Assembly (NCBI GenBank): GCA_964348645.1
Contig: CAYGDK010000001.1
Location: forward strand, 14,426 to 68,669
From: an uncultured Candidatus Saccharibacteria bacterium
GTDB taxonomy: Bacteria; Patescibacteriota; UBA1384; 2-12-FULL-50-11
Length of the DNA stretch: 54,244 nucleotides
Direction of reading: 5' to 3'
Shown here: in pieces, positions 11,056 to 50,969 of the stretch
Numbering within the stretch: position 1 is the stretch's first letter
Layout: each line of letters starts with the position of its first letter
Translations under genes and position numbers: made by a program
The notes under the pieces: generated by a model
Told to the model about the DNA's origin: nothing
What the model saw: the letters and a program-made list of their open reading frames with translations, nothing else
Databases searched by the model: none

Positions 11056-11088
11056 GGCGGCACAGCAATGTGCCGCCCAAACTTTTAC
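11056..11088 (+). terminator. Intrinsic terminator after the GreA-like gene
   Basis: GGGCGGCACA-gcaa-TGTGCCGCCC followed by AAACTTTT. Confidence 0.7.
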
Positions 11089-24234: not shown

Positions 24235-24978
24235 ATGAAACAGACACCCCTCTTAACTCTCAAACAACGCCATACCGACATACTGCTCTTATTATTCAGA
24301 TTCCGTTTCCTGACCCGTCCGCAAATTCAGCAACTCCTTACACTCAAAAACCATCAAAAAGTCCTCCGGTGGTTAAACGAACTAGCTAAATCTCAGTACG
24401 CGACTAAGTATCAGTCATCCGTCTCTTCAGTTGCTACATATTCGCTTGGTCGTGCCGGTCGCAAGTATTTGGTTAAGAACAAGCTGGTGAAGCAGGCGGT
24501 CCTACTCGATCGTGTCTGGCGAGAGTACGCCTACTCGTCCGGCTTTCGCGAAAAATGCCTTCTGATTGCCGACATGTATCTGCAATTAGTCGCCCGATCG
24601 GGAGGGGCGCTTCGCTTTTGGACGAAGTCCGAACTCCACGGTGTCGAGAATATGATCGAACCTGCGCCTGATGCCTATATTATTGTGAATGAAAAAAGCG
24701 AAGCGGATCGGATCTTTCTAGAAGTTCCAACCGTTGCCCGAACCAAAAATGTCATGGCCCAGATCGAGCGCTATTCGGAATACTTTTTCAGCCGGGAGTG
24801 GCAGGAACATACCGACAAACCGTTTCCAAAGATCGTTATCATCTGCCCGAACAGGAATGTTATTAAATCGACATTAAGTTTTATCAAAGAAGAATTCGCA
24901 GACGAGCCCGATCTCCGCTTTCGTGTAGCGAGCTCCGATCAGGCTCTGGAAGAAATACTGCCAAAGGAAAAGGCCTGA
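24235..24978 (+). CDS. Replication-relaxation family protein
   Basis: N-terminal LTLKQRHTDILLLLFRFRFLTRPQIQQLL winged-helix-like motif typical of this family, adjacent to the T4CP gene. Confidence 0.6.
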   Translation: MKQTPLLTLKQRHTDILLLLFRFRFLTRPQIQQLLTLKNHQKVLRWLNELAKSQYATKYQSSVSSVATYSLGRAGRKYLVKNKLVKQAVLLDRVWREYAYSSGFREKCLLIADMYLQLVARSGGALRFWTKSELHGVENMIEPAPDAYIIVNEKSEADRIFLEVPTVARTKNVMAQIERYSEYFFSREWQEHTDKPFPKIVIICPNRNVIKSTLSFIKEEFADEPDLRFRVASSDQALEEILPKEKA

Positions 24979-25001: not shown

Positions 25002-25673
25002 TTACATTTTTAAACTTCCGTCGTGGATCGAAATCCTTTTGGTTGCAAAGGGCTCGATACGTTCGTCATGGCTAGCAACAATAACTCCGATTCCCGAGTT
25101 GGTCGAAGCTTTAAGTAGCTGCATAATTTGATTACCGTGAACTGTGTCTAAATTGGCTGTGGGTTCGTCTGCCAGTATAATCTCGGGATCATTAACTAAA
25201 GCTCTGGCAATGGCGACGCGCTGTTTTTCACCGCCTGATAATGACTCGACGGGTGCATCAAGTCTCTTAGACATCTCCAGTTGATCCAGCAAGCTTTCCG
25301 CCTTCTTATGTGCTGCCTTGTAAGACAACTTTGTAGCTAAGAGTGGCAACATAACATTTTCGACTGCCGTCAGGGCACGAATCAACTTGAAATCCTGATA
25401 GACAAACCCGTACGTGTTAAGCCTTAACTTGGCAATCTTATTGTCCGTTAGGCCGGAGACAGCCTGGCCCGAGACAGACAATGAGCCGGCATCTGGTCTT
25501 GTAAGTAATCCAAGCACTTGAAGCAGAGTCGTTTTCCCAGATCCAGACGGGCCCTTAACCAATATCAGCTCACCTTTGCTTAGTTCTAAGTTGATATCAC
25601 TCAGCGCTACTATTTTATTTGTAGCCTTACCGAACGTTTTGGAAATATTAGCAGCGACTAGAAGTTTGCTCAT
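25002..25673 (-). CDS. ABC transporter ATP-binding protein (MacB/LolD-like)
   Basis: GPSGSGKTT, LSGGEKQRVAIARAL, ILADEPT. Confidence 0.88.
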   Translation of the reverse strand: MSKLLVAANISKTFGKATNKIVALSDINLELSKGELILVKGPSGSGKTTLLQVLGLLTRPDAGSLSVSGQAVSGLTDNKIAKLRLNTYGFVYQDFKLIRALTAVENVMLPLLATKLSYKAAHKKAESLLDQLEMSKRLDAPVESLSGGEKQRVAIARALVNDPEIILADEPTANLDTVHGNQIMQLLKASTNSGIGVIVASHDERIEPFATKRISIHDGSLKM

Positions 25674-26779
25674 CTAAATGCTTCCGAAGGGTAGACCGAG
25701 CTAATAAACTTTACGGACGGAACCATTGCGAGCAGCGAAATGATTAACGTCAGTAACAGCGTCTGCCAAACCGCTTTAAATGTAAGAGCGATCGGAATAT
25801 CTATTAATTTGGGCAACAAATAATTAGCAGCTACTACGATTAGTAAACCAATCACAAAACCTATCAGTACCAATAAGAATGCTTGGAAGTAGGTCATTAA
25901 TGACAAAGTTCGATCGTTGAAACCAATTGCTTTCATAACCCCTAACTCTCGCCGACGTTCGTTAATTGAGCTGTAGAGGACTATCCCAACTATCATAGTG
26001 CCCAAGATGACAGCCACCGCTGTCATCATATTAAGAATTGGGGCGAAGGACTCAGCCTGCGACTCATCAGCTACTGCTATTTGTTCGGCTTTAGTCTTAG
26101 CACTAAGATTATCGAACTGATCTTCGATACTGTTTATAACTTCTTTAGCAGGAGCGTCACCGCTCAGCTCAAGTAGGGCAAATGTTGCATAACCCGGTGC
26201 GGGATAGATGTCGCGTGAGATCTTCTGAGTCACCCAGGAATGATTACGGCCGAAACTTTTACCTTCTGGCACTAATCCTGCCACCTCCCAGTTACGGTCG
26301 ATACCGATAATTTTCAGTTGATCACCGACATCCAGGTGCAATGCTTTCGCAAGCGAAGAAGGAATGACTATCTGCGAATCATCAATGATACGACTGCCGG
26401 CAACTACCGGCCAAGGACCGTAATCTGTATTGCTCGGCTCGTACCCAGAGATATAGAGATCGTATACTTTCCCATCGCGTTCCAATCCGGCTCGAGTGTT
26501 GAATACTGGCGTCACTTTAGCCACCCCGTTAATTGATTGGATACTGGTTAAGGTAGCAAGCGGTATGGGGGTTGAGGCCTGGTAGTAGGCGCTCACTCCC
26601 CTTGGGAATACAAAGATGTCCGTGTTAATTTCTTCAACAAACTTTACGTCGCGTTTTAACGACCCGTTATAAATAGCTTGCATCATCAACATCAAAACAA
26701 TCGACAAAGTAATGCCAGCAATACTAAGTATCAGCCGGCCAGAATCTTTACTTAGAGTACGCCAAACAATCAGTAACAT
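25670..26779 (-). CDS. ABC transporter permease, FtsX/MacB type
   Basis: 369 aa with one N-terminal TM, a large extracytoplasmic domain and a C-terminal FtsX-like 3-TM bundle. Overlaps the ATPase gene by 4 nt. Confidence 0.8.
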   Translation of the reverse strand: MLLIVWRTLSKDSGRLILSIAGITLSIVLMLMMQAIYNGSLKRDVKFVEEINTDIFVFPRGVSAYYQASTPIPLATLTSIQSINGVAKVTPVFNTRAGLERDGKVYDLYISGYEPSNTDYGPWPVVAGSRIIDDSQIVIPSSLAKALHLDVGDQLKIIGIDRNWEVAGLVPEGKSFGRNHSWVTQKISRDIYPAPGYATFALLELSGDAPAKEVINSIEDQFDNLSAKTKAEQIAVADESQAESFAPILNMMTAVAVILGTMIVGIVLYSSINERRRELGVMKAIGFNDRTLSLMTYFQAFLLVLIGFVIGLLIVVAANYLLPKLIDIPIALTFKAVWQTLLLTLIISLLAMVPSVKFISSVYPSEAFR

Positions 26780-29375: not shown

Positions 29376-30158
29376 GTGACTGATATTCGCGCCGAAATTA
29401 CAGGAGATGTGCAAAAGATTGTAGCCCGCCACGACTTACACCTCCGCGGTTCTTGGCTATATGGCGAACAACACTTTGTTGCTGTAGAGAACCGGCTATT
29501 CTCACTCTCGGACATAGACATAATTTCCGATAGAGAACTTGCCACCCCATCTGAGGAGCTGGTTCGAACGGATATTAAAGCAGCTACTGAGAACATTTTA
29601 TTGTTTCCGCCAGCCATTTCTATTCGAAACGTAGCTATAAGCAATGACGCTTCCCAAGTAATTAACCACAATACGTTATTTTGGGCATATATTGCTCTAT
29701 TTGAATTGAAGAATTCACTGCAAGAATCCCAGCCTAATACCTACTGCGATACTGAATCGTATTTCTTGAATAAGTTTTTGCTGAATATATGGCGAAACTT
29801 ACTTTTCGAAGCAGGCAAGTCGCCAACGTCCTACTCATCTATCGTAGATGCGCTGGATGATCTACCTGACCATGATAAGAAGGGCATACTTTTAATTAAA
29901 AAGGGTGAATACCGTTCTCGCGAAGCCCCATCTTTAATATCCAAGTTTCATGACTATACAGCGGCATGGGTAAAAGAAAATTCTCGTAACGAGATCCGCA
30001 GTGGTTTACTGGATATATTAGTAGGAGAAGCTCACCGCAGAGATTTTTCATTAATTTTTAGCGAATTGAGCCAGGTAGCTATAACAGGGACAGAGTTTGA
30101 TGTAATTGCTTACTCCCAAGCTAGGATTGGGAGAGTGGGCAGGAGAAAAAAACTTTGA
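29376..30158 (+). CDS. Hypothetical protein with a possible minimal nucleotidyltransferase (pol-beta-like) N-terminal motif
   Basis: LHLRGSWLYGE...LFSLSDIDIIS could be a GS...DxD NTase motif with long spacing. I could not identify a third acidic residue. The C-terminal half is helical. Confidence 0.4.
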   Translation: MTDIRAEITGDVQKIVARHDLHLRGSWLYGEQHFVAVENRLFSLSDIDIISDRELATPSEELVRTDIKAATENILLFPPAISIRNVAISNDASQVINHNTLFWAYIALFELKNSLQESQPNTYCDTESYFLNKFLLNIWRNLLFEAGKSPTSYSSIVDALDDLPDHDKKGILLIKKGEYRSREAPSLISKFHDYTAAWVKENSRNEIRSGLLDILVGEAHRRDFSLIFSELSQVAITGTEFDVIAYSQARIGRVGRRKKL

Positions 30159-30255: not shown

Positions 30256-33069
30256 ATGTACAAAAATACTGAAGAAAAAACACGTCAAGAAATAATCGAC
30301 ATTCGACTCCAGCACGCTGGGTGGAATGTTAATGATATTTCACAAGTTACTTCAGAATTAGATATTTGGGTTGGCCTACCCGAAACCGTCTCAGAGCCTG
30401 AAAACCCATACCAGGGGCATCAATTTGCCGATTATGCTCTGCTTGGTGATGATGGCTATCCGCTTGCAGTGGTGGAGGCAAAGAAGACTTCTCGCGATGC
30501 ACGGATCGGACAGGAGCAAGCACGCCAATATGCGGAGAACATCAAGGGGGATTCTGATAAAGACATGCCGTTCGTTTTTTACACAAACGGACACGACATA
30601 TATTTCTGGGACACCGAAAAGTTCCCACCACGAAAGGTATACGGCTTTCCCACTAAGAAAGATCTTGAGCGGATGCTCTTTTTACGTAAAAACGAAAAAC
30701 CTCTTTCCCAAGAACTAATTAATAAAGATATTGCTGGCCGCCCTTACCAAATTGAGGCGATTCGCTCTGTTTTTGAAAATCTCGAAAAGGGCAAACGAAA
30801 GTCTTTGCTCGTTATGGCGACAGGAACCGGAAAAACAAGAACCTGTGCCGCGATGATCGACTCGCTCATGCGCGCCAACAAGGTACAAAAGATCCTCTTT
30901 CTTGTAGATCGTATCGCTCTACGGAACCAAGCCCTTGATGCATTCAAAGAGTATTTGCCGAATGCTCCTGTATGGCCAAAGGTGGGCGAGCACGACATCG
31001 CAACAGACAGACGTATTTACTGCGCGACGTACCCAACGATGCTTAATATCATCGAGGATAAGGATTGCCCACTCAGTCCGCATTTCTTCGACATGATCGT
31101 GGCCGATGAAAGTCACCGGTCAATCTACAATGTGTACAAAAATATTTTCGACTATTTTGACACGATCCAGCTCGGCCTTACTGCGACACCAAAAGATGCG
31201 GTTGAGCATAACACCTTTGGTCTCTTCGACTGCGAGGAGGGCGTCCCAACATTTGCCTACTCGTATGAAGAAGCAATTAACAACAAGCCACCTTACCTTT
31301 GTGATTTTGAGGTTCTAAAAGTAAAAACAAAGTTTCAAAAAGAAGGTATCCGAAAGAATAATATTTCTGTTTCAGAACAACAGAAACTTCTTGCTGATGG
31401 CAAGGAACCCGAGGAAATTAACTACGAGGGTAGTGAAATCGAAAAGCGAGTCTCCAATAAAGGCACAAACGCCTTGATCGTTCAGGAGTTCATGGAGAAC
31501 TGCATAAAGGATGAAAGCGGGACGCTGCCAGGGAAGACCGTATTCTTCGCCATGACCATGAAGCACGCCCGAAGGATCCAGGAAGTCTTCGACAATCTCT
31601 ACCCTGAGCACAAAGGTAATCTTGCGAAGGTTATAGTTTCTGATGACTCACGGGTTTATGGAAAAGGCGGTCTACTCGATCAGTTCATCAACAAAGATTT
31701 TCCTCGCATTGCCATCAGCGTAGATATGCTTGATACCGGTATTGATGTACGCGAGCTAGTAAATCTCGTATTCGCCAAGCCGGTCTTTTCCTACACAAAG
31801 TTCTGGCAAATGATTGGCCGAGGGACACGACTTTTGGAGCCAAACAAAATCAAGCCTTGGTGCAAAGAAAAAGATAAGTTCCTAATCATCGACTGCTGGG
31901 ACAACTTTGAGTATTTTCAAATGAACCCAACCGGTAAAATTGATAAGCCATCTAAACCGGTTCCTGTTCGTTTGTTTGAAACGAAATTAGAGAAACTCAG
32001 AGTGGCCCAAGATCAGAATCTCACTCAGGTTGTAGATACTACCGTTCAAAAAATTAAAGAAGATATTGAGAAGCTGCCACAAAACAACGTCGTAGTCTTA
32101 GATGCTCAAAGCAAAATCAGTAAGCTAGACGAAACTTTCTGGCACAAGCTCACCGATGATAAGATGCTCTTCCTTCAAAAAGAGATCGCGCCACTAATGC
32201 GAACGCGCACTGGCGAAGACTACAAGGCTATGGGCTTTGAGATTAGAGTAATGAACTACTCAGCTACTAAGCTTCTTGGAACCGTGGAGTCAGCCGAGAA
32301 AGTACAAACCCTTCGGGACGTAATTATCGAAATGGTCTCTGACCTTCCACTTACGATTAATATCGTTGCAAAGGAAAGGGAACTTATCGAGAGCATCCTC
32401 AACAGCGCCTATCTCGAAGAAGCGGACGAGGATGAGCTCAATACAGTTATTGAAAAGATTGCCCCACTCATGAAGTACCGAGAGGAAGGCATTAAGCCTG
32501 ACCAGGACGAACACAACTTCAAAGATCAAACGAGCGAGAAAGAATATATAAAATTTGGGCCAGCACACGAGCGGATCACAGTACTCAAATATCGAGAAAA
32601 AGTTGAGGCGCTCGTAAAAAGTCTGGAAGAAGATAACCCTATTCTGCAAAAGATTAAACAGGGCGAAGATATCTCGCATGAAGAGGTAGAGCAGCTTGCT
32701 ACCACTCTTGGCGGATACGAGCCGTACCCAACTGAAGAGAACCTCCAAAAAGCATACGATGCTCGTAAGGTAGCTTTCCTTGACCTTATCAAGCACATCA
32801 TGGGGATGGGCGGACTGGTGACATTCCCGGAAAAGGTATCCGAAGCCTTTGCCGAATTTATCGCCGATCATAATACCCTAGCCCCAAACCAGATTCAGTT
32901 CCTGATCGTGCTTCGCGACTTTATCATCAACAATGGGGATCTGACCAAAAAAGACCTTGTGCAAGAGCCATTCACCAAATTGCACACACGAGGCTTCCTG
33001 GGACTCTTCACTCCACAACTTCAGACAGAGATTCTGACCCTCACTAATAGAGTTCTGCACCATGCTTAA
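30256..33069 (+). CDS. hsdR: Type I restriction enzyme R subunit
   Basis: 937 aa with an N-terminal HSDR_N-like region, helicase motifs VMATGTGKTRT and IVADESHRS, and a C-terminal EcoEI-R-like tail. Confidence 0.92.
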   Translation: MYKNTEEKTRQEIIDIRLQHAGWNVNDISQVTSELDIWVGLPETVSEPENPYQGHQFADYALLGDDGYPLAVVEAKKTSRDARIGQEQARQYAENIKGDSDKDMPFVFYTNGHDIYFWDTEKFPPRKVYGFPTKKDLERMLFLRKNEKPLSQELINKDIAGRPYQIEAIRSVFENLEKGKRKSLLVMATGTGKTRTCAAMIDSLMRANKVQKILFLVDRIALRNQALDAFKEYLPNAPVWPKVGEHDIATDRRIYCATYPTMLNIIEDKDCPLSPHFFDMIVADESHRSIYNVYKNIFDYFDTIQLGLTATPKDAVEHNTFGLFDCEEGVPTFAYSYEEAINNKPPYLCDFEVLKVKTKFQKEGIRKNNISVSEQQKLLADGKEPEEINYEGSEIEKRVSNKGTNALIVQEFMENCIKDESGTLPGKTVFFAMTMKHARRIQEVFDNLYPEHKGNLAKVIVSDDSRVYGKGGLLDQFINKDFPRIAISVDMLDTGIDVRELVNLVFAKPVFSYTKFWQMIGRGTRLLEPNKIKPWCKEKDKFLIIDCWDNFEYFQMNPTGKIDKPSKPVPVRLFETKLEKLRVAQDQNLTQVVDTTVQKIKEDIEKLPQNNVVVLDAQSKISKLDETFWHKLTDDKMLFLQKEIAPLMRTRTGEDYKAMGFEIRVMNYSATKLLGTVESAEKVQTLRDVIIEMVSDLPLTINIVAKERELIESILNSAYLEEADEDELNTVIEKIAPLMKYREEGIKPDQDEHNFKDQTSEKEYIKFGPAHERITVLKYREKVEALVKSLEEDNPILQKIKQGEDISHEEVEQLATTLGGYEPYPTEENLQKAYDARKVAFLDLIKHIMGMGGLVTFPEKVSEAFAEFIADHNTLAPNQIQFLIVLRDFIINNGDLTKKDLVQEPFTKLHTRGFLGLFTPQLQTEILTLTNRVLHHA

Positions 33070-34588
33070 TACCAAGCTGAAATCATCAATCGGTCGCCTT
33101 TGGGATAAGTTCTGGAGTGGTGGTATCTCAAACCCCCTTACCGCTATTGAGCAAATCTCGTACCTGCTCTTCATGAAACGATTAGATGAGATGGATATCA
33201 AAAAGAAACAGGACGCGGAGTTTACCGGCGAAGCGTACAAGCCGGTATTCCATGATGAATATGAGACGTTTCGCTGGAGCCATTTTAGGCATATGGAGGG
33301 TGGGGAGATGCTAACCCATATTCAAACAAAGGTTTTCCCGTTTCTAAAAACACTCGGCAAAGAAGAGAGCCCTTTCGCAAAACACATGGGTAATGCCGTA
33401 TTTATTATTTCCAAACCTTCTCTCCTCGTAGAGGCAGTAGGTATCATCGACGAGATATTTGAGGAAATTTCTACCCAGGACACAAAAGGCCAGGGTTTTC
33501 AGGATACCCAGGGAGACATCTATGAATACCTTCTCTCAGAAATCACGAGCGCTGGTAAGTTGGGCCAGTTCCGTACACCGCGCCATATTATCCAGCTCAT
33601 CTGCGAACTAGTAGATCCTAAGCTTGGCGACACTATCTGCGATCCTGCCTGTGGTACGGGCGGGTTTCTCCTCGGTGCCTACCAACACATTGTCACGGCT
33701 TACACGAACAAAGAGCACCAAAAGACCGATGAAAATGGCTTAACTCGCGGAGACCTAGGAGATAAACTGACCGATGAGCGTCAGTGGCACCACCTCAAAG
33801 AGAAAACCTTCTATGGTTACGATATGGACGAAAGCATGGTCCGTATCGGCCTGATGAACTTAATGATGCACGGGATTTCTAGTCCTAATATCGAGCAGAA
33901 AGATACTCTTTCTAAGAAATATGATGAGGACGGACGCTATGACGTAATCATGGCTAACCCCCCTTTTAAGGGAAGTATCGACAAGGGTGACATTAATGAG
34001 TCGCTTTCACTCAATACCACCAAGACTGAGCTGCTGTTTATCAACAAAATTATTCAGTCTCTAAAAATTGGTGGCAGAGCAGGCGTGATAGTACCTGACG
34101 GCGTTCTCTTTGGTTCGAGCAATGCACATAAGCAGGCTCGTCAGATGCTGCTTAATGACTGCGAACTTCAGGGAGTCATTTCTATGCCGAGCGGCGTGTT
34201 CAAGCCATACGCCGGGGTCAGCACCGCTATTCTCATCTTCGTAAAGGGTGGAGAAACTGAAAAAGTTTGGTTCTATGACATGCAGTCAGATGGCTATAGC
34301 CTAGACGACAAGCGCACCAAGATAAATGGCGGCGGAGACTTGCCTGACATTGTTGATAAATGGAAAACCAGAAAAGAACAAACTGAGAATAAGCTAAACA
34401 GCAAGTTTTTCTACGTCGATAAGAAAGAGATCGAAGACAACGGCTTTGACCTGAGTATTAACCGCTACAAAGTTACCGATCACGAAGATGTGAGCTACGA
34501 GGATCCGGAAGTGATTCTCGAAAAAATTGAGACACTAGAGCAAGAAATTCTTACAGGACTCAGCGAAATTAAAAATTTAGAAGTATGA
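33062..34588 (+). CDS. hsdM: Type I R-M N6-adenine DNA methyltransferase subunit
   Basis: N-terminal HsdM_N motif, SAM motif DPACGTGGFL, catalytic NPPFKG. Overlaps hsdR by 8 nt. Confidence 0.93.
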   Translation: MLNTKLKSSIGRLWDKFWSGGISNPLTAIEQISYLLFMKRLDEMDIKKKQDAEFTGEAYKPVFHDEYETFRWSHFRHMEGGEMLTHIQTKVFPFLKTLGKEESPFAKHMGNAVFIISKPSLLVEAVGIIDEIFEEISTQDTKGQGFQDTQGDIYEYLLSEITSAGKLGQFRTPRHIIQLICELVDPKLGDTICDPACGTGGFLLGAYQHIVTAYTNKEHQKTDENGLTRGDLGDKLTDERQWHHLKEKTFYGYDMDESMVRIGLMNLMMHGISSPNIEQKDTLSKKYDEDGRYDVIMANPPFKGSIDKGDINESLSLNTTKTELLFINKIIQSLKIGGRAGVIVPDGVLFGSSNAHKQARQMLLNDCELQGVISMPSGVFKPYAGVSTAILIFVKGGETEKVWFYDMQSDGYSLDDKRTKINGGGDLPDIVDKWKTRKEQTENKLNSKFFYVDKKEIEDNGFDLSINRYKVTDHEDVSYEDPEVILEKIETLEQEILTGLSEIKNLEV

Positions 34589-35754
34589 AGGAAGTAAAAA
34601 TCGGAACCATTGCTAAGGTTTTCAACGGCTACGCGTTTAACAGTACTGACTACGTCAAAGAGGGATACCGGGTAATAAGGATCACAAATGTTCAGAAGGG
34701 ATTTATTACAAATTCCAGTCGAAAATTTATAGACCTTAAAAATAAATTATTGGAACGATTTATTTTGAAGCAAGGCGATATATTAATCTCATTAACCGGG
34801 AATGTTGGAAGAGTTGGGAAAGTTACAAATGAAATATTGCCCGCAGTACTCAATCAACGAGTTGGTAAGATAGTAATTACTTCTAAGGACGTAGTGCCCG
34901 ACTATCTTTTTCATATATTGAATAGCAATATTTTTGAAACCAGGTTGATTGAAAAATCAAAAGGCATTGCACAAAAGAATATCGGATCATCTGACATTGA
35001 AAGTTTGTTAATCCCCCTCCCGTCACTTGAAAAGCAAAAACATATTGTGAATGTTCTTGACCAGGCTAATAGTCTCCGAGAAAAACGTAAGGAAGCAATT
35101 GCGTTATTAGACGAATATTTGAAGTCGATATTTTTAAACTTGTTCGGCGACCCTGTTAATAACCCAAAAGCGTGGCCTAGTGGGAAGGTACAGGATTTGG
35201 TCTCTGATGTTAGATATGGAACAAGCGCCGTTGCTAGTTCAGAGGGAGAATACCCCTATCTGAGAATGAATAACATCACATACTCGGGAGAGCTTGATAT
35301 CTCAAAGTTAAAATTCATAAATCTTTCTGATGGTGAAAAGGAAAAGTATCTTGCAAAAAAGGGAGACTTACTATTTAACAGAACAAACAGCAAGGAGTTA
35401 GTCGGCAAGACAACTGTCTATAACCTAGATAAGCCTATGGCTATTGCTGGCTATTTGATTCGAGCTAGGACAAATGAGTTAGCTGTCCCGGAATATATTT
35501 CCGGTTACCTAAATTCAAAGCATGGTAAAAAAACTTTAGAAGCAATGTGTAAAAGTATTGTTGGTATGGCAAATATAAATGCGAAAGAGTTGCAGAGTAT
35601 TAAGATACTAATCCCACCTATTGATTTACAAAAGAAATACGCAATGACTGTTGAAAAGGCCGAAGCCCTTAAACGAAAAATGCTTACTCAACTTAAAGAA
35701 ATCGATAGTCAGTTTCACGCTGCCGTGCAAAAGTCATTTAGATATAACGCCTAA
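34585..35754 (+). CDS. hsdS: Type I R-M specificity subunit
   Basis: 389 aa with two target-recognition-domain halves separated by the conserved helix LPSLEKQKHIV...; the second half ends PPIDLQKKYA. ATGA overlap with hsdM; very AT-rich. Confidence 0.9.
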   Translation: MKEVKIGTIAKVFNGYAFNSTDYVKEGYRVIRITNVQKGFITNSSRKFIDLKNKLLERFILKQGDILISLTGNVGRVGKVTNEILPAVLNQRVGKIVITSKDVVPDYLFHILNSNIFETRLIEKSKGIAQKNIGSSDIESLLIPLPSLEKQKHIVNVLDQANSLREKRKEAIALLDEYLKSIFLNLFGDPVNNPKAWPSGKVQDLVSDVRYGTSAVASSEGEYPYLRMNNITYSGELDISKLKFINLSDGEKEKYLAKKGDLLFNRTNSKELVGKTTVYNLDKPMAIAGYLIRARTNELAVPEYISGYLNSKHGKKTLEAMCKSIVGMANINAKELQSIKILIPPIDLQKKYAMTVEKAEALKRKMLTQLKEIDSQFHAAVQKSFRYNA

Positions 35755-35766
35755 AAATGGGGTGAC

Positions 35767-37098
35767 TTATGGGCGAATTCTTACGAGGAATGGACCACTT
35801 CTTGCTATCCAATGGCTATCCCTTACCACGAAAGCCTCAATCCAATGTGTGCCAATATAAAGTGAGGATTCTTTGCGAGTATCACCCTGGCCGCTGACCA
35901 CAAATCCTCCGCGCAGACCACTTACTTGCCTAGCATGATCACCCGTGTTTACCACCTGCCAATGAATTGTGTAGGGCTGTGGGACGTCGGTTTGGGCCGT
36001 GAAGTATAAGTTCCAGTTTTGCTCAACAATATCATTTGAGCTAAAACTTGATTCCGGGCCCTCCCATTTACGACGGAACCCCTTCTTGGGTGCCTGCATT
36101 CTTTTAATCGCTCGTACCGTTGCTTTATAACTGCTCGATAGGTGCGACCAAGGAACTGGTTGCCGATGAGAGTAGTCTGCCAATTCGGGCACTTCTGCCT
36201 CAACGATTGACCTGTTTTTTGCCTCAGGGAAGTCATCCCCTAACAATTTACGCCACAAGACAGCGCTTTGTATTTCACTTTCTTCCGCAAATGCCTGCTC
36301 GGCCACTACCGCTGCTGCCAATACTTCCCGCCGGAAATCTTTGTAATGAGCAGTCTCCCAGCGTTCAGCAAAATCTTCCTCTGACATCACGGGGTTTGGT
36401 ACCGGAGGCGGCGAATCTGGGTGTTGCTCAAGCATTCCAGCAATACCGGACAAAGTAATCGTTAAGTTATCGGCATCAGTTTCATCGTTGAGAAACGACA
36501 TCGAAGCTATAACTTGAAGTGTTACAGATTTTATCGCCTGATTAACATTTTGGTTGAAATCCCGCCAGCGCTTGAGCATCTTCACGGTCCGTAAAAAGTT
36601 GTCTCCCTGGTTTTTGCACCACTCCGTATAGGCTTTTGGATTACTAAGCACCCAACCATCACTACGCTGCGGTATTTCAATAAACCCTTCTGTTTCACTC
36701 AACCGTGCGGGAACAAGATCAACGTGGAACCCACCAATTTCTTCATCAGCATATTGCAGCCGAACGCACGACTCTTTACGTGGGTTGGTCACTACCATGG
36801 TTTTGTACGTACCGTTCTCTAGTAGGGCATTTTCCAAGATAGTAAGCGCTTCTAAAGCTGTTTGCCTCGCTTCGGCACAGAGCACAACTAGATCAACATC
36901 ATACTCACCATCTTCGAGTGGCTTGACAGACGTCTCGTTAGCGTAAGAGCCTTGAAGAAAGAAGTCATCTTTAGTAATCCCGAAGTAGTTTGAAAGATAG
37001 CCTGTCAAACCGCCTACGGCATCGTTGATTCGCTCGTGCTGCTTGTCTCCGAGCGAAATTTTTTCAACAAATTCGCTGAACGACGAATTTAATTTCAT
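35767..37098 (-). CDS. SMODS/CD-NTase-like nucleotidyltransferase with a long beta-rich C-terminal extension (possibly AGS-C-like)
   Basis: ATG 37098 has GGAGG upstream. Motifs FFLQGSYANETSVKP, DVDLVVL and GGFHVDLVPAR. The C-terminal ~200 aa end WQVVNTGDHARQVSGLRGGF...THWIEAFVV. The track ORF start at 37179 looks spurious. Confidence 0.7.
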   Translation of the reverse strand: MKLNSSFSEFVEKISLGDKQHERINDAVGGLTGYLSNYFGITKDDFFLQGSYANETSVKPLEDGEYDVDLVVLCAEARQTALEALTILENALLENGTYKTMVVTNPRKESCVRLQYADEEIGGFHVDLVPARLSETEGFIEIPQRSDGWVLSNPKAYTEWCKNQGDNFLRTVKMLKRWRDFNQNVNQAIKSVTLQVIASMSFLNDETDADNLTITLSGIAGMLEQHPDSPPPVPNPVMSEEDFAERWETAHYKDFRREVLAAAVVAEQAFAEESEIQSAVLWRKLLGDDFPEAKNRSIVEAEVPELADYSHRQPVPWSHLSSSYKATVRAIKRMQAPKKGFRRKWEGPESSFSSNDIVEQNWNLYFTAQTDVPQPYTIHWQVVNTGDHARQVSGLRGGFVVSGQGDTRKESSLYIGTHWIEAFVVRDSHWIARSGPFLVRIRP

Positions 37099-37676
37099 TT
37101 CTTTTTCCTCCAATGAGACCAGTAGATATTGCGAAGCATGAGCAGGAACCGCGGCGCTCGCCACCACGACAACTGCCATCGCACATCACGCAGAAAACGC
37201 CGAGACTCTTTGTCGATCTCGTCAAAAGTAGCAATTTCTTTTGAACGTTCCGTGGATGACAGTGCTGTCTTTAAACTTTTCCAACGAGGAGTAAGCGGAC
37301 GCTGCCAGGCATCAATTATTGGATCTTCAAGTGAGGCCTTAATCTTTGTCACTAGTTTTTGGTAGGCTCGTCCTAGCCACAGGGACTCGGTATAAATCCA
37401 GCCCTGGTTGTAAAGAATCTTTTCCTGAAGTTCGTGAAATCGATCTACTAGCACATCAGCTTCTCTTTTGGTTTTACCCCGTCGGCGAATTCGGTAGAGC
37501 ATCTCTCCCCAGGCAAGAATATCTTGATAAGCTTGGGCATATAACGTTCTACGTCGTTGTCTCTTTTCGCTTGAATATGCCGCGTAAGCCACAATTAAAG
37601 CAACCAAAATCGTACCGACGATTGTCAAAATTGGTGATAAATTTAGTAGCTGCTTTATATTTGGCATTGCCGTCAT
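37095..37676 (-). CDS. Single-pass membrane protein, unknown family, translationally coupled to the NTase
   Basis: The stop overlaps the NTase ATG (ATGA). One TM (ILTIVGTILVALIVAYAAY) is followed by a basic helical region. Start is uncertain: ATG 37676, ATG 37667 or TTG 37724, none with a good SD. Confidence 0.55.
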   Translation of the reverse strand: MTAMPNIKQLLNLSPILTIVGTILVALIVAYAAYSSEKRQRRRTLYAQAYQDILAWGEMLYRIRRRGKTKREADVLVDRFHELQEKILYNQGWIYTESLWLGRAYQKLVTKIKASLEDPIIDAWQRPLTPRWKSLKTALSSTERSKEIATFDEIDKESRRFLRDVRWQLSWWRAPRFLLMLRNIYWSHWRKKK

Positions 37677-37865
37677 CTTAGCGGAAATTAACCAGACAGA
37701 AAATGGTCTGGACGTGAGTTCCAAGCAAAAAAGCTAGCCAAAGAACAGGTAGATACCCTCATTCGCAAAGGCTACTACAACTTTCGAAACGGGGATCATA
37801 GATCAGTAATACGCCCAGGTTGTGGAACAATTTATCCTTTTGTGTTTCTGTACAATTAGATAAGA

Positions 37866-39170
37866 ATGACGACAGACTTTCGTAAATTTTTACGCGGATT
37901 ACTTTGGTTTATAGGGATTGCCATTGGACTTCTATATCTGTCTTGGATTACGGTTGGATTCGGTTTTGCCTGGTTACTGTATAAAGCTTTCAAGAGTAGC
38001 CGGACAAATTACGCTCACCATTCAGGAAAACTAACGAGCGATCAATATACTCAAGTTCTTGGCCATATGTTCCGTCGAATAAAAACCAACTGGATCGTGC
38101 AGAAAGTCTGGAAAGGCGGCTTATTCACGGCTAAATGGGTCGTTCGATTAAGTATCCTCCTGTCGCTAATCCTCAATATGATTTTGCTTTGGTACGTTTA
38201 CCAATATCGGACCGGTCAGGTGGATTACGAATTGAAATGCGGCCAAGCCGATATTCAAACGGCTTCTGATTCAGTCGTCTTAATTGAGGGCGAGGAGGGT
38301 GTTGGTAGTGGTTTCTTTGTGGAGAAAAACTTTATTGTCACCAACAATCACGTCGTCGATCACAATCCAATCACAAAAATTTTGATCGGCGATCAAGACC
38401 TGGCTTCCGTTGCACGCGTGGTAGCCACCGACTCATTACGCGACATCGCTCTTATTAAGATCACTAGCTACAACGATATGCCGTTCTTACATGGAGCAAC
38501 CAGGCCAGTAGTCCCGGTTGATGAAGTTTACGCTATCGGCTACCCACTTGGTCGGAATCTATCGATTTCCAAAGGTATTGTTTCGGCTCTGACGCTCGAC
38601 GACTATGATGATCGTCGCTTTATTCAGACCGATGCGGCTATCATCCCGGGCAACTCTGGTGGCCCGTTGGTGGATATCTGCGGTAAAGTCGTCGGGATGA
38701 ACACTCAAACCCTCCAGGGACAAGAAAACGTTGGTTTTGCCATTGAGTACTCCCAACTCAACGATCGCATCCAGGCGATGATTAAGACGGCCGAGGGCGC
38801 GACTCCACAGGAAATCCAGCTCAACTACCCATCCGAGCAAGCTGAGGTCGTAGCGAAGTACTACACGACCTTAGGTGGCGGTGCCTTGCAGGAAGCCTAC
38901 GACTTCTACGCGGCAGGTAGAAAAGCTAAGCTACCATTCGAAAGCTGGCAAAAAGGGCTGGATCGAACAATCTTTATTCGTTTGGTCTCCGTTGAGCTAA
39001 CTGACAAGCCCAATACCATTAAAGTTCACTTTTACGCTACTGAAGAAAAAGAAGATAATCCCTGGGAGTGGAAAACTGGCGAGTTTGAGGGGACTTGGAC
39101 ATTGCTGCGCGAAGGTGGCTTGTGGAAAATGAACGAATCGAATATTAAAGATATAACTAAGCCCCAATAA
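37866..39170 (+). CDS. Membrane-anchored trypsin-like (S1C/HtrA-type) serine protease with an extra C-terminal domain
   Basis: Three N-terminal TM helices. Catalytic triad context TNNHVV, DIALIKI, GNSGGPLVD. The C-terminal ~110 aa are unassigned and there is no PDZ domain. Confidence 0.8.
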   Translation: MTTDFRKFLRGLLWFIGIAIGLLYLSWITVGFGFAWLLYKAFKSSRTNYAHHSGKLTSDQYTQVLGHMFRRIKTNWIVQKVWKGGLFTAKWVVRLSILLSLILNMILLWYVYQYRTGQVDYELKCGQADIQTASDSVVLIEGEEGVGSGFFVEKNFIVTNNHVVDHNPITKILIGDQDLASVARVVATDSLRDIALIKITSYNDMPFLHGATRPVVPVDEVYAIGYPLGRNLSISKGIVSALTLDDYDDRRFIQTDAAIIPGNSGGPLVDICGKVVGMNTQTLQGQENVGFAIEYSQLNDRIQAMIKTAEGATPQEIQLNYPSEQAEVVAKYYTTLGGGALQEAYDFYAAGRKAKLPFESWQKGLDRTIFIRLVSVELTDKPNTIKVHFYATEEKEDNPWEWKTGEFEGTWTLLREGGLWKMNESNIKDITKPQ

Positions 39171-39857: not shown

Positions 39858-39966
39858 TCATTTTCAGTAGGAGTGTCATTAACAAATGCCTGTCGTAACT
39901 GGTCCAACCAACTAAGCAGGTGTTCGTATGAAAGTCTCTCAAGCGCACAGTTAAGATATATTTGTT

Positions 39967-40039
39967 GCCCTCATAGCTCAGTGGATAGAGCGTTGGTTTC
40001 CGGTACCAAAGGCCGCTGGTTCGAGTCCAGCTGAGGGCA
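39967..40039 (+). tRNA. tRNA-Arg (anticodon CCG)
   Basis: GCCCTCA-TA-GCTC-AGTGGATA-GAGC-G-TTGGT-TTCCGGT-ACCAA-AGGCC-GCTGG-TTCGAGT-CCAGC-TGAGGGC-A. Confidence 0.88.
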
Positions 40040-40046
40040 CAGAAGC

Positions 40047-42287
40047 TTATATCCGAACCCTTTTCAGCAATAGTGAGTTAAGCACCACTGATATGGAGCT
40101 AGCTGCCATTGCGGCTGAGGCAAAGATCGGACTAAGGAGAATCCCCCAGGTTGGGAATAGAATGCCCGCTGCTACTGGAATGAGCAGGATATTGTAGCCA
40201 AAAGCCCAAACCAAATTCATCCGTATTGTCCCCATCGTCTTGCGACTCAAACGAATCGCAGATGTTAAGCTGCGTAGGTCTTTGTTGATCAGTGTAATAT
40301 CGGCCGCCTCAATCGCCACATCTGTGCCGCTGCCCATTGCGATGCCGTTGTCGGCGGCTGCGAGCGCGGGTGCATCGTTAATGCCATCTCCTACCATCGC
40401 TACGTGGAATCCTTTATGTTGCAGCTTACGTATTTCGCCTTCCTTATCCTGCGGGAGAACTTCTGCTAATACATTCCGTGGCTTAATTCCTACTTCCTTG
40501 GCAATAGCCTCGGCAACGCGACGATTATCACCTGTGATCATAAATATCTCTAGGCCAAGGTCGGTAAGTTCTTTAATAGCCTGTTTTGAAGTTGGCCTTA
40601 GCGTATCTGCAACGGCGACAATTCCGGAAGCCTTTTGATTAATTGCCACCAGCATTGCTGTCTTGCCTTCGTTCTCGAGTCGTTCAAGCTCCGCAATTTG
40701 TTTTCCGGAAAGTGAGATTTGGTTCTCGCTCAATAGTTTTCGGTTTCCTATCAGAACAGCTTGACCATTAACATTTGCCGTAACACCTTGTCCGGAAAGA
40801 GCATTGAATTCAGAGGTCTTGGACAGCCCTAATTTTCTATCTTTAGCGCCATCAACAATTGCCGACGCGAGTGCATGCTCTGACAGACTTTCGACACTTG
40901 CGGCTAGGGCTAGTAGTACTTTCTCATCAACTGACCAGGCGACAACGTCTGTCAAAATTGGTTGACCATTTGTTAGTGTGCCAGTTTTGTCAAAGACAAT
41001 TGCACTGACCTTGTGCGCAGTCTCAAGCGCTTCGGCATCTTTAATTAGGATACCCTTTTCGGCGCCCCGGCCAGTCCCAACCATTATCGCGGTTGGCGTA
41101 GCTAGGCCCATGGCACAGGGACAGGCGATAATTAGCACCGTTACCATGTTTAGTAGGGCGTAGGTCATTGCGGGGCTCGGGCCAACTACATACCAGAGCA
41201 CGAACGTTGCGATCGCGATCATCATAACAATCGGGACGAAATACGATGAGACGGTGTCAGCTAATCGCTGAATTGGAGCTTTTGATCCCTGCGCGTCTTC
41301 GACAAGTTTAATGATCTGGGCAAGCATTGTTTCAGAGCCAACCTTTTCCGCTACGAGCGTAAAACTACCGGTCTTGTTAAGTGTTGCACCAATAACAAGG
41401 TCACCGACTTTTTTAGTTGAAGGTATGGACTCACCAGTCACCATTGACTCATCAATGCTTGACTGGCCATCGACAACCTTGCCATCGACGGGGATTTTTT
41501 CTCCTGGACGAACGAGGATGTGATCACCCTTCACCACCTGCTCAATCGGCAAATCAATTTCTTTGCCAGCACGAATCACACGTGCAGTCTTGGCCTGTAG
41601 GCTCATTAGCTTCTTAATCGCCTGGCTTGTCCGCTTCTTAGCGATAGCCTCTAGGTAGCGGCCTAAAAGTATTAGGGTAATGACTATTACCGAGACATCA
41701 AAGTAAGGCATAACTTCGACATCAAGTTTTGCAAAAGTGTCTGGGAAGAATGCGATATAGGCAGAGTAGAGATAAGCAACTAAAGTACCTAAGGCAATTA
41801 ATGTGTCCATATTTGCACTCCGGTGTAGCAAAGCTTTCCAAGTGCTCTTGTAGAATTGCCAAGCCGCCCAAAATTGTATGGGCGTTGCTATGACTAATTG
41901 AACGTATACATTTTTTAGAAGTTCCGGCGCTGTTTCCATTAGTCCGGGGAAGCTTCCCCACAGGATAAGGAGTCCGGCAACAATACCGGCGATGATCTTT
42001 GGTCGAAGAGTCTTAATTTCCTGTTCGCGCATCATGGCCTGATGGTCGGGGTGTTCGCTGCCAGCGGGAACAGCTTTGTAGCCAGTCCGGTCTACGGCTG
42101 CCTCCAAATCCTGACGTGTGGCGTGAGTTTGGTCGTAAGTAACGGTTGCCTTACCTGTTGCAAGATTGACGTTTGCTTCTTGGACGCCCTTAACTTTGGA
42201 AAGTGAACGCTCAATCGTTAATACGCAGCTTGCGCAATGCATGCCTTCGATGTTGAGTGTTTCTTTTTTGTGAGATGAATGACCCAT
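40047..42287 (-). CDS. copA: Copper-translocating P1B-type ATPase
   Basis: N-terminal HMA domain (GMHCASC), CPC motif ([12 protein letters not shown]), DKTGTLT and GDGINDAP. Confidence 0.93.
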
Positions 42288-47812: not shown

Positions 47813-49543
47813 TTACGCAATTTCTTTAATTAGATCTTGCGTGGTTTGTGTTGTTTGCTCTGGTGTTTTTCGGCTGCGAACGGAGATCGTTTTCGACTCT
47901 TCTTCTTTGGCTCCAACGACTAGGATAAATGGAATTTTTTGAGTCTCAGCGATTCGGATTCTTTTTCCAAGTGATTCGCTGCTGTTGTCCAGCTCAAATC
48001 GAACGCCCGCAGCTTTAAGTTCGCTAGCTACGCTGGCGGCGTACGAATCAAATTTTTCACTAATCGGTAAAACAACGGCCTGAACTGGAGCTAGCCAAAC
48101 GGGGAAATCGCCGCCGGTATGTTCGATTAAGATTGAAGTAAAACGCTCGATCGAACCCATGATGGCGGCGTGAATCATAACAACCTCTTCCTCTTTTCCG
48201 TCAGCGTTAATATAGTTCAACTCAAAACGCTTCGGTAAGTTCATGTCGAGTTGAATGGTAGCTACTTGCCACTCACGGCCAAGAGAATCCGAGGCCATGA
48301 AGTCGAGCTTTGGTCCGTAAAAATTTGCTTCGCCTTCGCCTATAAAGTAGTCGGCTTTTTTCTTAATCGCCATTTTTTCAAGTGACTGTTCGGCGCTCTC
48401 CCATAGCTCCTGACTGCCTAAGTATTTTTCGGGCGCAGATTTATCGCGAACAGAAAGTCGGACACGCAAGCCAAAGCCAAAGCGGCCGTAGAACTTTTCG
48501 ACGATATCCCAGACAGCCAACAGTTCGTTGTTTACCTGGTCTGGTCGACAAAAGACGTGCGCATCATCTTGCGTGATGCTCAGGACCCGTGAGAGGCCCG
48601 ACAATTCACCGGATTGTTCGTCGCGGTAAACCATGGTCGTGTTGGCGTAGCGTTGCGGCATGTCGCGGTAGCTCCAGCGTTTGCGGGCAAAAATTTGCGT
48701 GTGGTGCGGGCAGTTCATTGGCTTGACGACAAACTGCTTGCCTTCGCGAGTTTCGATGACATACAAGTCGTCTTTAAACTTTTCCCAGTGGCCAGACTTC
48801 TCGTATAGATCTTTTTTGGCCAGATGAGGAATTTCAACACGGTCGTAGCCTTTTTCGCGTCGCAGCTGCCAGACAAAGTCGTCGAGCAATTGGCGAACAA
48901 CCATGCCTTTTGGCGTCCAGAGTGGTAGGCCAGGACCAACCAGTTCGGAAAAGACAAAGAGGTCCAGGGCTGGGCCAACTTTTTTATGATCACGTTTTTT
49001 GGCTTCCTCAAGCTGAGCGAGATAGGTGTCGAGTTCTTTCTGACTTTCAAAAGCAGTGCCGTAGATGCGGGTTAGCATCGGATTATTTTCGCTACCGCGC
49101 CAGTAAGCGCCGGCGATGCTGAGGAGTTTTAGGGCTTTGACTTCACCTGTTTTGGCGACGTGCGGACCCTTGCATAAATCCCAGAACGTATCGATACCGT
49201 AATGGCTCAATTCCTGATCGGGTAAATCGTTGATTAGCTCTTCTTTGAAGGTTTGTTTGAACTTTTTTGTTTGCCCGAGTGCTTCATTGCGAGAAAGGAA
49301 TTTGTGTTCAATCGGAAAGTTTCGACCAACAAGTTTACGCATCGATTTTTCCAGATCCTTGAGCGTCTCCTCGCTGACCGGTTTGGTGAATTCGAAATCG
49401 TAGTAGAAACCGTTATCGATCGGCGGACCGATTGCCAGTTTGACTTCGGGATCGTACTCAAGCGCTGCCATCGCCAAAAGATGGGCAGCGGTGTGCCGTA
49501 CTTTATAAAGATTGGTTTCTTCGTACTTTTGGTGCGCTTTCAT
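47813..49543 (-). CDS. thrS: Threonine--tRNA ligase (short form without the TGS domain)
   Basis: 576 aa with the SAD motif HTAAHLLA, class II core motifs and a C-terminal anticodon-binding domain. Confidence 0.92.
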   Translation of the reverse strand: MKAHQKYEETNLYKVRHTAAHLLAMAALEYDPEVKLAIGPPIDNGFYYDFEFTKPVSEETLKDLEKSMRKLVGRNFPIEHKFLSRNEALGQTKKFKQTFKEELINDLPDQELSHYGIDTFWDLCKGPHVAKTGEVKALKLLSIAGAYWRGSENNPMLTRIYGTAFESQKELDTYLAQLEEAKKRDHKKVGPALDLFVFSELVGPGLPLWTPKGMVVRQLLDDFVWQLRREKGYDRVEIPHLAKKDLYEKSGHWEKFKDDLYVIETREGKQFVVKPMNCPHHTQIFARKRWSYRDMPQRYANTTMVYRDEQSGELSGLSRVLSITQDDAHVFCRPDQVNNELLAVWDIVEKFYGRFGFGLRVRLSVRDKSAPEKYLGSQELWESAEQSLEKMAIKKKADYFIGEGEANFYGPKLDFMASDSLGREWQVATIQLDMNLPKRFELNYINADGKEEEVVMIHAAIMGSIERFTSILIEHTGGDFPVWLAPVQAVVLPISEKFDSYAASVASELKAAGVRFELDNSSESLGKRIRIAETQKIPFILVVGAKEEESKTISVRSRKTPEQTTQTTQDLIKEIA

Positions 49544-49602: not shown

Positions 49603-50889
49603 CTAGCGGTCGCTTGGGAGCGGGAAGCCTTTGGAGTATTCGGTTACTTCTTGGCGCAGTGCGGCGATCTTTTGTTCGTCGGATCGGTTGTTGATGGCTT
49701 GGATCATCCACTCGGCAACTCGCTCCATATCACTTTCTTTGAGCCCGCGGGTGGTAATCGCTGGTGTGCCGAGACGAATACCGCTGGGTTTAAACGGCGG
49801 TAAAGGATCGTCTGGGATAACATTCTTATTCAAGGTGAGGCCGACCTGATCGAGAACAATTTCGACTTCCTTACCGTTTAAGCCAAAGCTGGCGTTAACG
49901 TCTGCCAAAATGAGGTGGTTGTCGGTGCCGTTGGTGATGAGCTTGAAGCCGCGATCCATCATTGCCTTAGCAAGTGCTTGTGCGTTGCTGAGTACCTGCT
50001 CGGCGTACGCGGCGAACTCTGGCTGGCCTGCTTCATGAAAAGCGATGGCCTTAGCCGCAATGACATGCATATGTGGACCGCCCTGGATTCCGGGAAAAAC
50101 GGTCCGATCGACAAGCGTTGGTAGATTCTCGATAGTTTTTTCTGGTGCCTTGAGTGGGTTGCCAGGGGTACCCTTCGTTAAAACAATGCCGCCCCGAGGT
50201 CCACGGAGTGTCTTGTGGGTGGTTGAGGTAAGCATGTGAAAGCCGTGGTCGAAAGGATTAGCGAGCTTCTTGGCCGCGATTAGCCCGGCGATGTGGGCAA
50301 CGTCGGCCCAAAGAACAGCTCCGACCTCTTGGCCAATTTCGGCAAATTTGGCGTAATCCAATTCGCGTGGATAGGAAGAGAAACCAGCCAAAATCATTTT
50401 CGGCTTATGCTCTTTGGCCAGTGCGCGCAGGGCGTCGTAATCAATTTCGCCGGTTTCAACGTCTTTCATGCCGTAGCGAACAAAGTTGAAGATCTTAGCG
50501 AGGATTGTGCCTGGCCGTCCGTGCGTCAGGTGACCGCCGTGGCTGAGCTCCATGCCCATAATCGTATCGCCAGGCTCCATCCAGGCATGCTCAGCAGCTT
50601 CGTTAGCTTGGGCGCCTGATAGCGGCTGGACGTTAGCGTGGTCGGCGCCGAAGAGGGCTTTAACGCGATCTATCGCTAATTGCTCAATTTGGTCTGTGAA
50701 TTCTTGACCACCGTAGTAACGGCGCCCAACGTAACCCTCGGAGTATTTATTAGTGAGCACGCTAGACATTGCGTCGAGCACATCGCGGCTGACGTAGTTT
50801 TCGGAGGGAATCAGTTCCAGCCCTTCGTGCTGTCGCTTCTCCTCGCCCTTTAGAATTTTCTCAACTGCACTGTCTTTCATTGGCTGCAT
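49603..50889 (-). CDS. glyA: Serine hydroxymethyltransferase
   Basis: LELIPSENY, the PLP-lysine context TSTTHKTLRGPRGG, and GTPAITTRG. I prefer ATG 50889 (or 50880) over the track start at 51000. Confidence 0.92.
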   Translation of the reverse strand: MQPMKDSAVEKILKGEEKRQHEGLELIPSENYVSRDVLDAMSSVLTNKYSEGYVGRRYYGGQEFTDQIEQLAIDRVKALFGADHANVQPLSGAQANEAAEHAWMEPGDTIMGMELSHGGHLTHGRPGTILAKIFNFVRYGMKDVETGEIDYDALRALAKEHKPKMILAGFSSYPRELDYAKFAEIGQEVGAVLWADVAHIAGLIAAKKLANPFDHGFHMLTSTTHKTLRGPRGGIVLTKGTPGNPLKAPEKTIENLPTLVDRTVFPGIQGGPHMHVIAAKAIAFHEAGQPEFAAYAEQVLSNAQALAKAMMDRGFKLITNGTDNHLILADVNASFGLNGKEVEIVLDQVGLTLNKNVIPDDPLPPFKPSGIRLGTPAITTRGLKESDMERVAEWMIQAINNRSDEQKIAALRQEVTEYSKGFPLPSDR

Positions 50890-50969
50890 CGTAGCAATAT
50901 TTTTCTTCGCCACCAAACATTTATTTAAAGGTATATGACAAACCAGTTTGTGAACCTTACAATAGTGGT

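Follow-up and report, generated by a model that had tools for sequence, protein, structure and literature searches.

A probable type I CBASS pair with a 1TM membrane effector on an ICE-like island of a Patescibacteria genome

INTRODUCTION

Do two overlapping genes in the genome of a candidate phyla radiation (CPR) bacterium form a defence system, and of which kind would it be? The question is raised by a 54 244 nt stretch of contig CAYGDK010000001.1 (hereafter the window), in which two minus-strand genes between positions 35767 and 37676 encode a small membrane protein and, downstream of it, a nucleotidyltransferase (NTase). A preliminary description made from the letters alone had read them as a minimal nucleotide-second-messenger defence system of the cyclic oligonucleotide-based antiphage signalling system (CBASS) kind, with a membrane effector that may be of a new type. 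We find that the pair is very probably an abortive-infection module of the type I CBASS kind. It lies on an island resembling an integrative conjugative element (ICE) in a Patescibacteria genome and was probably gained by horizontal transfer along with the neighbouring type I restriction-modification (R-M) system. This confidence applies to the identification of the system as a whole; the single mechanistic steps, which are drawn by analogy, are much less certain. The system is an ordinary two-gene one, and its effector class is already catalogued and not a new type. PADLOC and DefenseFinder should already call the pair type I CBASS, so that little is gained at the level of the system, and the remaining interest lies in the sensing and killing mechanism of the effector and in the CPR and ICE setting.

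RESULTS

The downstream gene encodes a CD-NTase fused to AGS-C

The downstream gene (35767..37098, minus strand; stop codon TAA at 35767-35769) encodes a protein of 443 aa. Pfam, PADLOC, an AlphaFold2 (AF2) model and Foldseek identify it as the CBASS oligonucleotide cyclase, a cGAS/DncV-like nucleotidyltransferase (CD-NTase) that carries an Ig-like AGS-C domain at its C-terminus. A longer reading of the open reading frame (ORF) from an ATG at 37179 is possible and would give 470 aa; the start that agrees with the homologues is the ATG at 37098. Pfam returned SMODS (E-value 5e-21), DncV-like_NTFase (6.5e-10) and AGS_C (1.7e-21), all above their gathering scores. In PADLOC 43 CBASS cyclase models matched, the best of them (PDLC00793, 4.7e-69) over residues 1-441, and CBASS cyclase models of NCBIfam matched as well, though under their equivalog cutoffs. 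Searching PDB sequences gave CD-NTases in 17 of 17 matches, with SmCdnG and BfCdnB (2.8e-12) followed by CdnD and DwCdnB.

The catalytic motifs were read directly. The pol-beta NTase G[G/S] motif lies in FFLQGSYANETSVKP (G50-S51; 36946..36951, minus strand), the catalytic metal-binding motif D67-V-D69 in DVDLVVL (36892..36900, minus strand; codons GAT GTT GAT) and the third catalytic acidic residue, D127, in GGFHVDLVPAR (36718..36720, minus strand). None of Q49, G50, S51, D67 and D69 varies among 68 homologues, and D127 hardly does, with at least 90% conservation in the homologue alignment. At the level of sequence the G[G/S]...DxD...D active site of a CD-NTase is intact as GS...DVD...D. The SMODS/CD-NTase arrangement that had been proposed for this triad is correct: all quoted motifs are present, and SMODS, PADLOC and Foldseek agree. 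A second invariant set of residues (N384, G386, R396, G397, E410, G416 and H418) lies inside the AGS-C domain.

The AF2 model of the cyclase, which used the 68 homologues as input, has a mean predicted local distance difference test score (pLDDT) of 92.3. It consists of the NTase core and helical lobe (residues 1-295; 36214..37098, minus strand), a disordered linker (297-304) and a C-terminal all-beta sandwich (~320-443). The first boundary comes from the DSSP assignment of the model and from a phmmer alignment of residues 3-300 with BfCdnB from the PDB. Using Foldseek we obtained BfCdnB (7ljo, E 5.6e-17, TMt 0.83) in first place, followed by DwCdnB, CdnD, SmCdnG, BdCdnG, CdnC, DncV and cGAS; the top 50 structural matches are CD-NTases throughout, with cGAS at the end of the list. 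The cyclase core is closest in both structure and sequence to BfCdnB (7LJO) and to CdnB of Deinococcus wulumuqiensis (DwCdnB; 8YSC and further entries), yet the identity is only ~22% and SmCdnG and CdnD reach nearly equal scores. These best-matching solved chains align to cyclase residues ~1-300 only and not to AGS-C.

The C-terminal part, which ends ...THWIEAFVV...RIRP, had been likened to AGS-C in the preliminary description, and this proved right: PF18134 matches residues 336-442 (35773..36093, minus strand) with 77 bits against a cutoff of 26.7, and the model shows the beta-sandwich. Its length had been overestimated. The beta-rich tail comprises ~125 aa and not ~200, and residues 166-295 form the helical lobe of the CD-NTase. 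According to published work AGS-C is an Ig-like domain of ~18 kDa that occurs on ~40% of type I CBASS cyclases, on nearly all of those in clades B and H, and that changes which phages are restricted (bioRxiv 10.1101/2023.05.21.541620). The domain found here is similar in size to those reported type I fusions.

The upstream gene encodes an effector of the catalogued 1TM class

The upstream gene (37095..37676, minus strand; stop codon TGA at 37095-37097) encodes a 193 aa protein that PADLOC, its homologues and an AF2 model identify as a CBASS effector with one transmembrane segment (1TM). Two starts are likely, the ATG at 37676 (193 aa) and the ATG at 37667 (190 aa, the public-database form P0001); the DNA homology to the closest relative, locus L007 (GCA_034680565.1), begins ~35 nt upstream of ATG 37676. 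Kyte-Doolittle windows of 19 residues, with values up to 2.36, revealed a single N-terminal transmembrane (TM) helix, SPILTIVGTILVALIVAYAAYSS (residues 14-36; 37569..37637, minus strand), which is the only hydrophobic segment in the protein. Residues 38-192 (37101..37565, minus strand), by DSSP of the model, make up a basic all-helical cytoplasmic domain, the presumed signal receptor. The AF2 model (72 sequences; pLDDT 93, pTM 0.83) is helical in its entirety: the TM segment runs on into a basic juxtamembrane helix (helix 14-64), the bundle helices after the TM segment span residues 38-64, 70-97, 99-125 and 141-169, and the C-terminal helix (173-192) is basic and rich in aromatic residues. A charge of +9 was counted over the 33 residues after the TM segment and of +18 over the whole protein. 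Across the family the TM segment consists to 48% of Gly/Ala/Ser/Thr, its N-flank being acidic and its C-flank basic. An N-out/C-in topology would fit these sequences, in agreement with the positive-inside rule. Hydrophobicity, charge and model all bear out the earlier picture of a ~190 aa protein with one N-terminal TM helix and a basic helical cytoplasmic part.

The statement that this protein belongs to no standard CBASS effector class, and may be of a new type, has to be withdrawn. It matches both 'Effector 1TM' models of PADLOC (PDLC00665, 2e-15; PDLC00666, 2e-13), as do 72 of 72 aligned members of its family (best 2e-33). The alignment covers positions 12-128 of the 178 profile positions, so the protein is a divergent member (E 2e-15). 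Judged by the profile match, the single TM segment and the place beside a CD-NTase, its sequence is that of a member of the catalogued 1TM class. The Millman 2020 scheme, which DefenseFinder uses (PMC9090908), counts 1TM among its standard effector categories, and this category has also been used by Lau et al. (bioRxiv 10.1101/2022.04.27.489752) and in a 2025 effector census (PMC12480259). The effector of the window shares with the 1TM family of PADLOC and DefenseFinder the single N-terminal TM helix and the adjacent cyclase; it differs in being divergent, in its unusually basic character (+18) and in a short insertion at about residues 128-140, TPRWKSLKTALSS, which is absent from most of the family and common only to the closest relative.

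We also considered other effector classes. SLATT, 2TM and 4TM effectors were rejected on the grounds that only one hydrophobic segment is present and that the effector has no SLATT match; one of its 72 relatives shows a marginal match to SLATT_fungal (E 0.004). Cap13, Cap14, Cap15 and Cap16 were rejected because the domain is all-alpha and gave no STING, SAVED, beta-barrel or NUDIX match in Pfam, PADLOC or structure searches. No Pfam or NCBIfam family matched the effector, no Pfam family was found across the 72 family members, and the family profile gave only chance matches among PDB sequences (best E 0.036). Structure searches with the helical bundle in PDB and BFVD gave no match at E<0.001.

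The most conserved positions of the family are R41-R43, A49, W56, E58, Y61, R62, R64-R66, F80, H81, Q84 and E85, and further W93, E97, A123, W124, F161, D164, R166 and S170. As a tentative reading of the model, which we regard as a serious possibility rather than as the expected outcome, the cytoplasmic domain of the 1TM class may be a new cyclic-oligonucleotide receptor fold, in which a basic bundle, tethered to the membrane and conserving Arg, Trp and His positions, would couple ligand binding directly to the assembly of a single-helix pore.

The two genes are joined and strictly co-conserved

The effector gene lies upstream of the cyclase gene on the same strand, and its TGA overlaps the cyclase ATG by 4 nt. 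We could read the translational-coupling junction (37095..37111, minus strand) directly: a GGAGG at 37111-37107 is followed by an 8-nt spacer and the ATGA start/stop overlap at 37098-37095, just as had been described before. The recognised 1TM effector, at 2e-15 and 2e-13, is thereby the immediate neighbour of the cyclase, which is the arrangement of type I CBASS. Neither Cap2/Cap3 nor a HORMA/TRIP13 or SAVED domain was found in the two flanking genes, hsdS and an HtrA-like protease (37866-39170), and the further island ORFs carry no Cap2/Cap3 (E1/E2/JAB) or HORMA/TRIP13 domain, as is typical of type I. In these respects the preliminary description, which had reported no such gene beside the pair and a minimal CBASS pair with the membrane effector upstream of the cyclase, was accurate, and domain and family matches together with gene order support it. 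It also gave the distance to hsdS correctly, with 12 nt between the stop of the cyclase and the stop of hsdS at 35754. Its placing of the pair in an AT-rich island, by contrast, disagrees with the GC content of the pair itself: the cyclase has 0.472 and the effector 0.452, close to the 0.478 of the whole window, and hsdS alone is low (0.368). Since both genes have strong homologues, they are real genes and not chance ORFs. As a candidate operator we considered a perfect inverted repeat of 6 bp that precedes the effector gene (37711-37692), and rejected it, as it is not conserved in L007.

A word-indexed search with the effector found 13 relatives, and an exhaustive profile search found 790 clusters (50% identity) at E<=1e-3, 83 of them at E<=1e-30. 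After reading the gene neighbourhoods of homologues of both proteins, we scored co-conservation by running hidden Markov models of both families on the six-frame ORFs of 25 loci. Every locus with an effector homologue (24 of 24) has a cyclase homologue as the next gene downstream in the same orientation, and the 4-nt start/stop overlap recurs in L002-L004, L007, L023 and L024. The two genes are strictly co-conserved, as the preliminary description had asked to be checked, and the 1TM family as a rule has the effector gene first, overlapping the cyclase gene by 4 nt. The hosts of such pairs comprise a Patescibacteria metagenome-assembled genome (MAG; 45% identity) and many Actinomycetota, among them Blastococcus, Gordonia, Nocardia, Acidithrix, Solirubrobacterales and Acidimicrobiales. 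Copies from CPR bacteria and from Actinomycetota share ~40% identity, and the spread over these distant phyla is patchy.

In three loci, L001 (6001-9083), L005 (6001-9289) and L006 (4932-8720), the 1TM effector is part of a type II CBASS. Here no AGS-C is fused to the cyclase, and a ThiF gene (Cap2-like) comes next, in some cases together with a JAB gene (Cap3-like); the pair of the window has AGS-C and neither ThiF nor JAB. Gene order is the same, with 36-42% identity for the effector and 45-48% for the cyclase core. That the 1TM effector also serves in type II systems with ThiF/JAB is expected of a swappable CBASS effector, and the occurrence of one effector family and a closely related cyclase core in both settings makes AGS-C and Cap2/Cap3 appear as alternative regulatory add-ons to a common core.

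Two further observations were made in the compared loci. In three soil MAGs, two of Solirubrobacterales and one of Acidimicrobiaceae, the cyclase is split in two ORFs or truncated while the 1TM gene is intact (L014, 5430-6781; L016, 5330-6767; L021, 5221-6015), which points to pseudogenised CBASS or to assembly frameshifts. In L025 (479-5593) a distant AGS-C cyclase (28% identity) pairs with a preceding SAVED effector and not with 1TM. Farther upstream in this locus lie genes for Multi_ubiq, DUF6791+ThiF and BubE, which may be a separate neighbouring system; an AGS-C beside a ubiquitin-like conjugation cluster is unusual in that the literature describes AGS-C as type I CBASS only.

Alternative explanations of the pair

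Instead of serving defence, the pair could control some membrane process as a housekeeping or regulatory second-messenger circuit, like the DncV-dependent regulation in Vibrio. We consider this quite unlikely. The bundle has a very weak likeness to the four-helix ligand-binding domains of the chemoreceptors Tar and Tsr (E ~1, TM-score 0.3), yet these Foldseek matches are not significant, and all members of the effector family match models of defence systems. A regulatory role also agrees poorly with the patchy distribution over distant phyla at ~40% identity, with the same effector being used beside Cap2/Cap3, and with the surroundings, for the homologous pairs are neighboured by R-M systems, integrases, transposases and HicAB. 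In favour of defence, the pair of the window itself sits among defence and mobile genes (hsdRMS, a serine recombinase and genes of a type IV secretion system, T4SS).

It is very unlikely, too, that the system comprises three or more genes, with the divergent HtrA-like protease or the type I R-M system as a partner (a CapP-like regulator or a second effector). The protease gene (37866-39170, plus strand; Trypsin_2, 1e-28) lies on the opposite strand, with just 190 nt separating it from the effector start. Its product is membrane-anchored and has weak PADLOC matches to the protease domains of RT-Protease_XI, LmuA and Avs1b, but these matches span the generic trypsin fold only, and the best NCBIfam matches are models of HtrA/DegP-type serine proteases, all below their curated cut-offs. 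Although hsdRMS and the pair are kept together in L007, a ResIII helicase occupies the position of the protease there, none of the 25 loci has a protease homologue within ~5 kb of the pair, and R-M homologues near the pair are confined to L007. Because neither is co-conserved, we rejected the protease and the R-M system as components and regard two genes as the functional unit.

Finally, a non-signalling NTase (an MNT-type antitoxin, an aminoglycoside or other antibiotic NTase, or a CCA-adding-like enzyme) beside an unrelated TM gene is so improbable that we dismiss it, and with it the MNT antitoxin and aminoglycoside NTase that the preliminary description had named: the sub-threshold matches to NTP_transf_2 (E 0.12, 13 bits against a cutoff of 21) and to the archaeal CCA NTase (E 0.055) arise from the shared pol-beta fold, whereas SMODS, AGS_C and DncV-like_NTFase lie above their gathering thresholds, the PADLOC cyclase match is full-length (5e-69), the protein models as a CD-NTase with the full helical lobe, the best PDB matches (17 in sequence, the top 50 in structure) are all CD-NTases, and the TM gene adjoins the cyclase without exception (24 of 24).

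DISCUSSION

Proposed mechanism and relation to known systems

The type I CBASS pair resembles systems with CD-NTase-AGS-C described before (bioRxiv 10.1101/2023.05.21.541620) in its two-gene architecture, its membrane effector and in having no Cap2/3 or HORMA/TRIP13. It differs from the AGS-C operons tested there, which are gammaproteobacterial and carry 2TM, 4TM, SLATT, Cap5, Cap15 or CapV effectors, by its CPR genome and its 1TM effector. TM effectors are reported to kill via oligomerisation and inner-membrane damage (Duncan-Lowey 2021, as summarised in PMC10419184), and the sensors of the named ones are STING for Cap13, SAVED for Cap14, a beta-barrel for Cap15 and NUDIX for Cap16 (PMC10419184, PMC12421889). 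By analogy, the effector of the window would follow the same logic of an N-terminal TM helix, a cytoplasmic nucleotide sensor and ligand-driven oligomerisation, while its sensor is an all-alpha bundle of another family.

Along these lines, a phage cue during infection would release or activate the cyclase, with AGS-C tuning which phages are sensed. The cyclase is predicted to make a cyclic di- or trinucleotide, which would then bind the cytoplasmic bundle of the effector; conserved Arg and aromatic residues (R62, R64-R66, F80, H81 and W124) may form the putative binding site. Binding could drive oligomerisation of the TM helices, which are rich in small residues, and the resulting oligomers might breach or depolarise the membrane so that the cell would die before phage release.

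Several points weigh against this interpretation. For the nucleotide product, the ligand-binding site, oligomerisation and membrane damage alike we relied on analogy with characterised CBASS. References of CD-NTase clades B, G and D score alike in sequence and Foldseek searches, BfCdnB being the top structural match. The effector model has no significant Foldseek neighbour, the best matches (PDB, E 0.46; BFVD, E 0.26) being generic helical bundles, and the effector charge of +18 is far from the family mean of +4.7 and near the family maximum of +20. A promoter and terminator scan at the pair did no better than shuffled sequence. In our literature search we found no paper characterising a single-pass or 1TM helical-bundle CBASS effector.

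For the catalogued 1TM class, the confident model and the conserved positions listed above make the sensing fold and the killing mechanism directly testable. If the reading as a new receptor fold is true, this compact CPR effector (193 aa, pLDDT 93) would be well suited as a starting point for defining the 1TM mechanism. The locus moreover provides a clean, documented example of CBASS from the Patescibacteria (CPR), carried along with a type I R-M system by an ICE-like element; few papers retrieved by our literature search mention both CBASS and Patescibacteria, and none of these is about CBASS in Patescibacteria. The closest relatives outside the CPR are found in Actinomycetota, which is of interest for the question of how immunity reaches ultra-small episymbiotic bacteria.

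Genomic island and host

Proteins labelled as Candidatus Berkelbacteria, Patescibacteria and Saccharimonadales share 78-80% identity with the BipA/TypA protein of the window. These identities support a CPR host, which we describe as Berkelbacteria-like, and the earlier impression of a CPR-like genome was right. The region from ~11 to 40 kb (11085-40040) looks like an ICE that carries the CBASS pair. It is flanked by housekeeping genes, with BipA (8421-10238) on one side and a Cu-ATPase (40047-42287), ThrRS (47813-49543) and SHMT (49603-51000) on the other. Mobility functions are represented by a large serine recombinase (11085-12788, minus strand), a TraG/VirB4-like ATPase (16885-18669, minus strand), a T4SS pilin-domain protein (19742-21010, minus strand), a TrwB-like coupling protein (21576-24122, plus strand) and a Replic_Relax protein (24235-24978, plus strand). 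As cargo the island carries ZnuABC (13365-15755), a MacB-type ABC transporter (25002-26779) and the type I R-M system hsdRMS (30256-35754), and small helix-turn-helix genes are present as well. The HtrA-like protease that lies divergent to the effector begins with TM segments and ends in a region of ~120 aa outside known families.

At the island ends we observed two tRNA genes. A tRNA-Arg(tcg) (11199-11274, plus strand) is contained within the 3' end of the oppositely oriented recombinase ORF, and a second tRNA-Arg (ccg), 71% identical to it, lies at the far end (39966-40040). A 21-nt copy of the 5' end of tRNA-Arg(tcg), GCGCCCGTAGCTCAGTGGATA, is located at 11136-11156, 63 nt upstream of that tRNA. 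The tRNA-Arg genes and the repeat may be integration scars or att sites.

Just upstream of hsdR, an ORF of 260 aa (29376-30158, plus strand) shows the pol-beta-NTase-like pattern LRGSWLYGE ... SDIDIISD. No Pfam, PADLOC or NCBIfam match was obtained for it and L007 lacks it; by its motif this ORF may encode a further small component, of the NTase type, of a defence or toxin-antitoxin system. L007 shares hsdRM (83% nt identity) and the CBASS pair (79%) with the window and has different flanks and its own recombinases. The only strongly diverged part of the R-M system relative to L007 is hsdS (34585-35754, plus strand), whose GC content of 0.368 compares with 0.45 for hsdR/hsdM; low GC content and divergence together fit a swapping of target-recognition domains.

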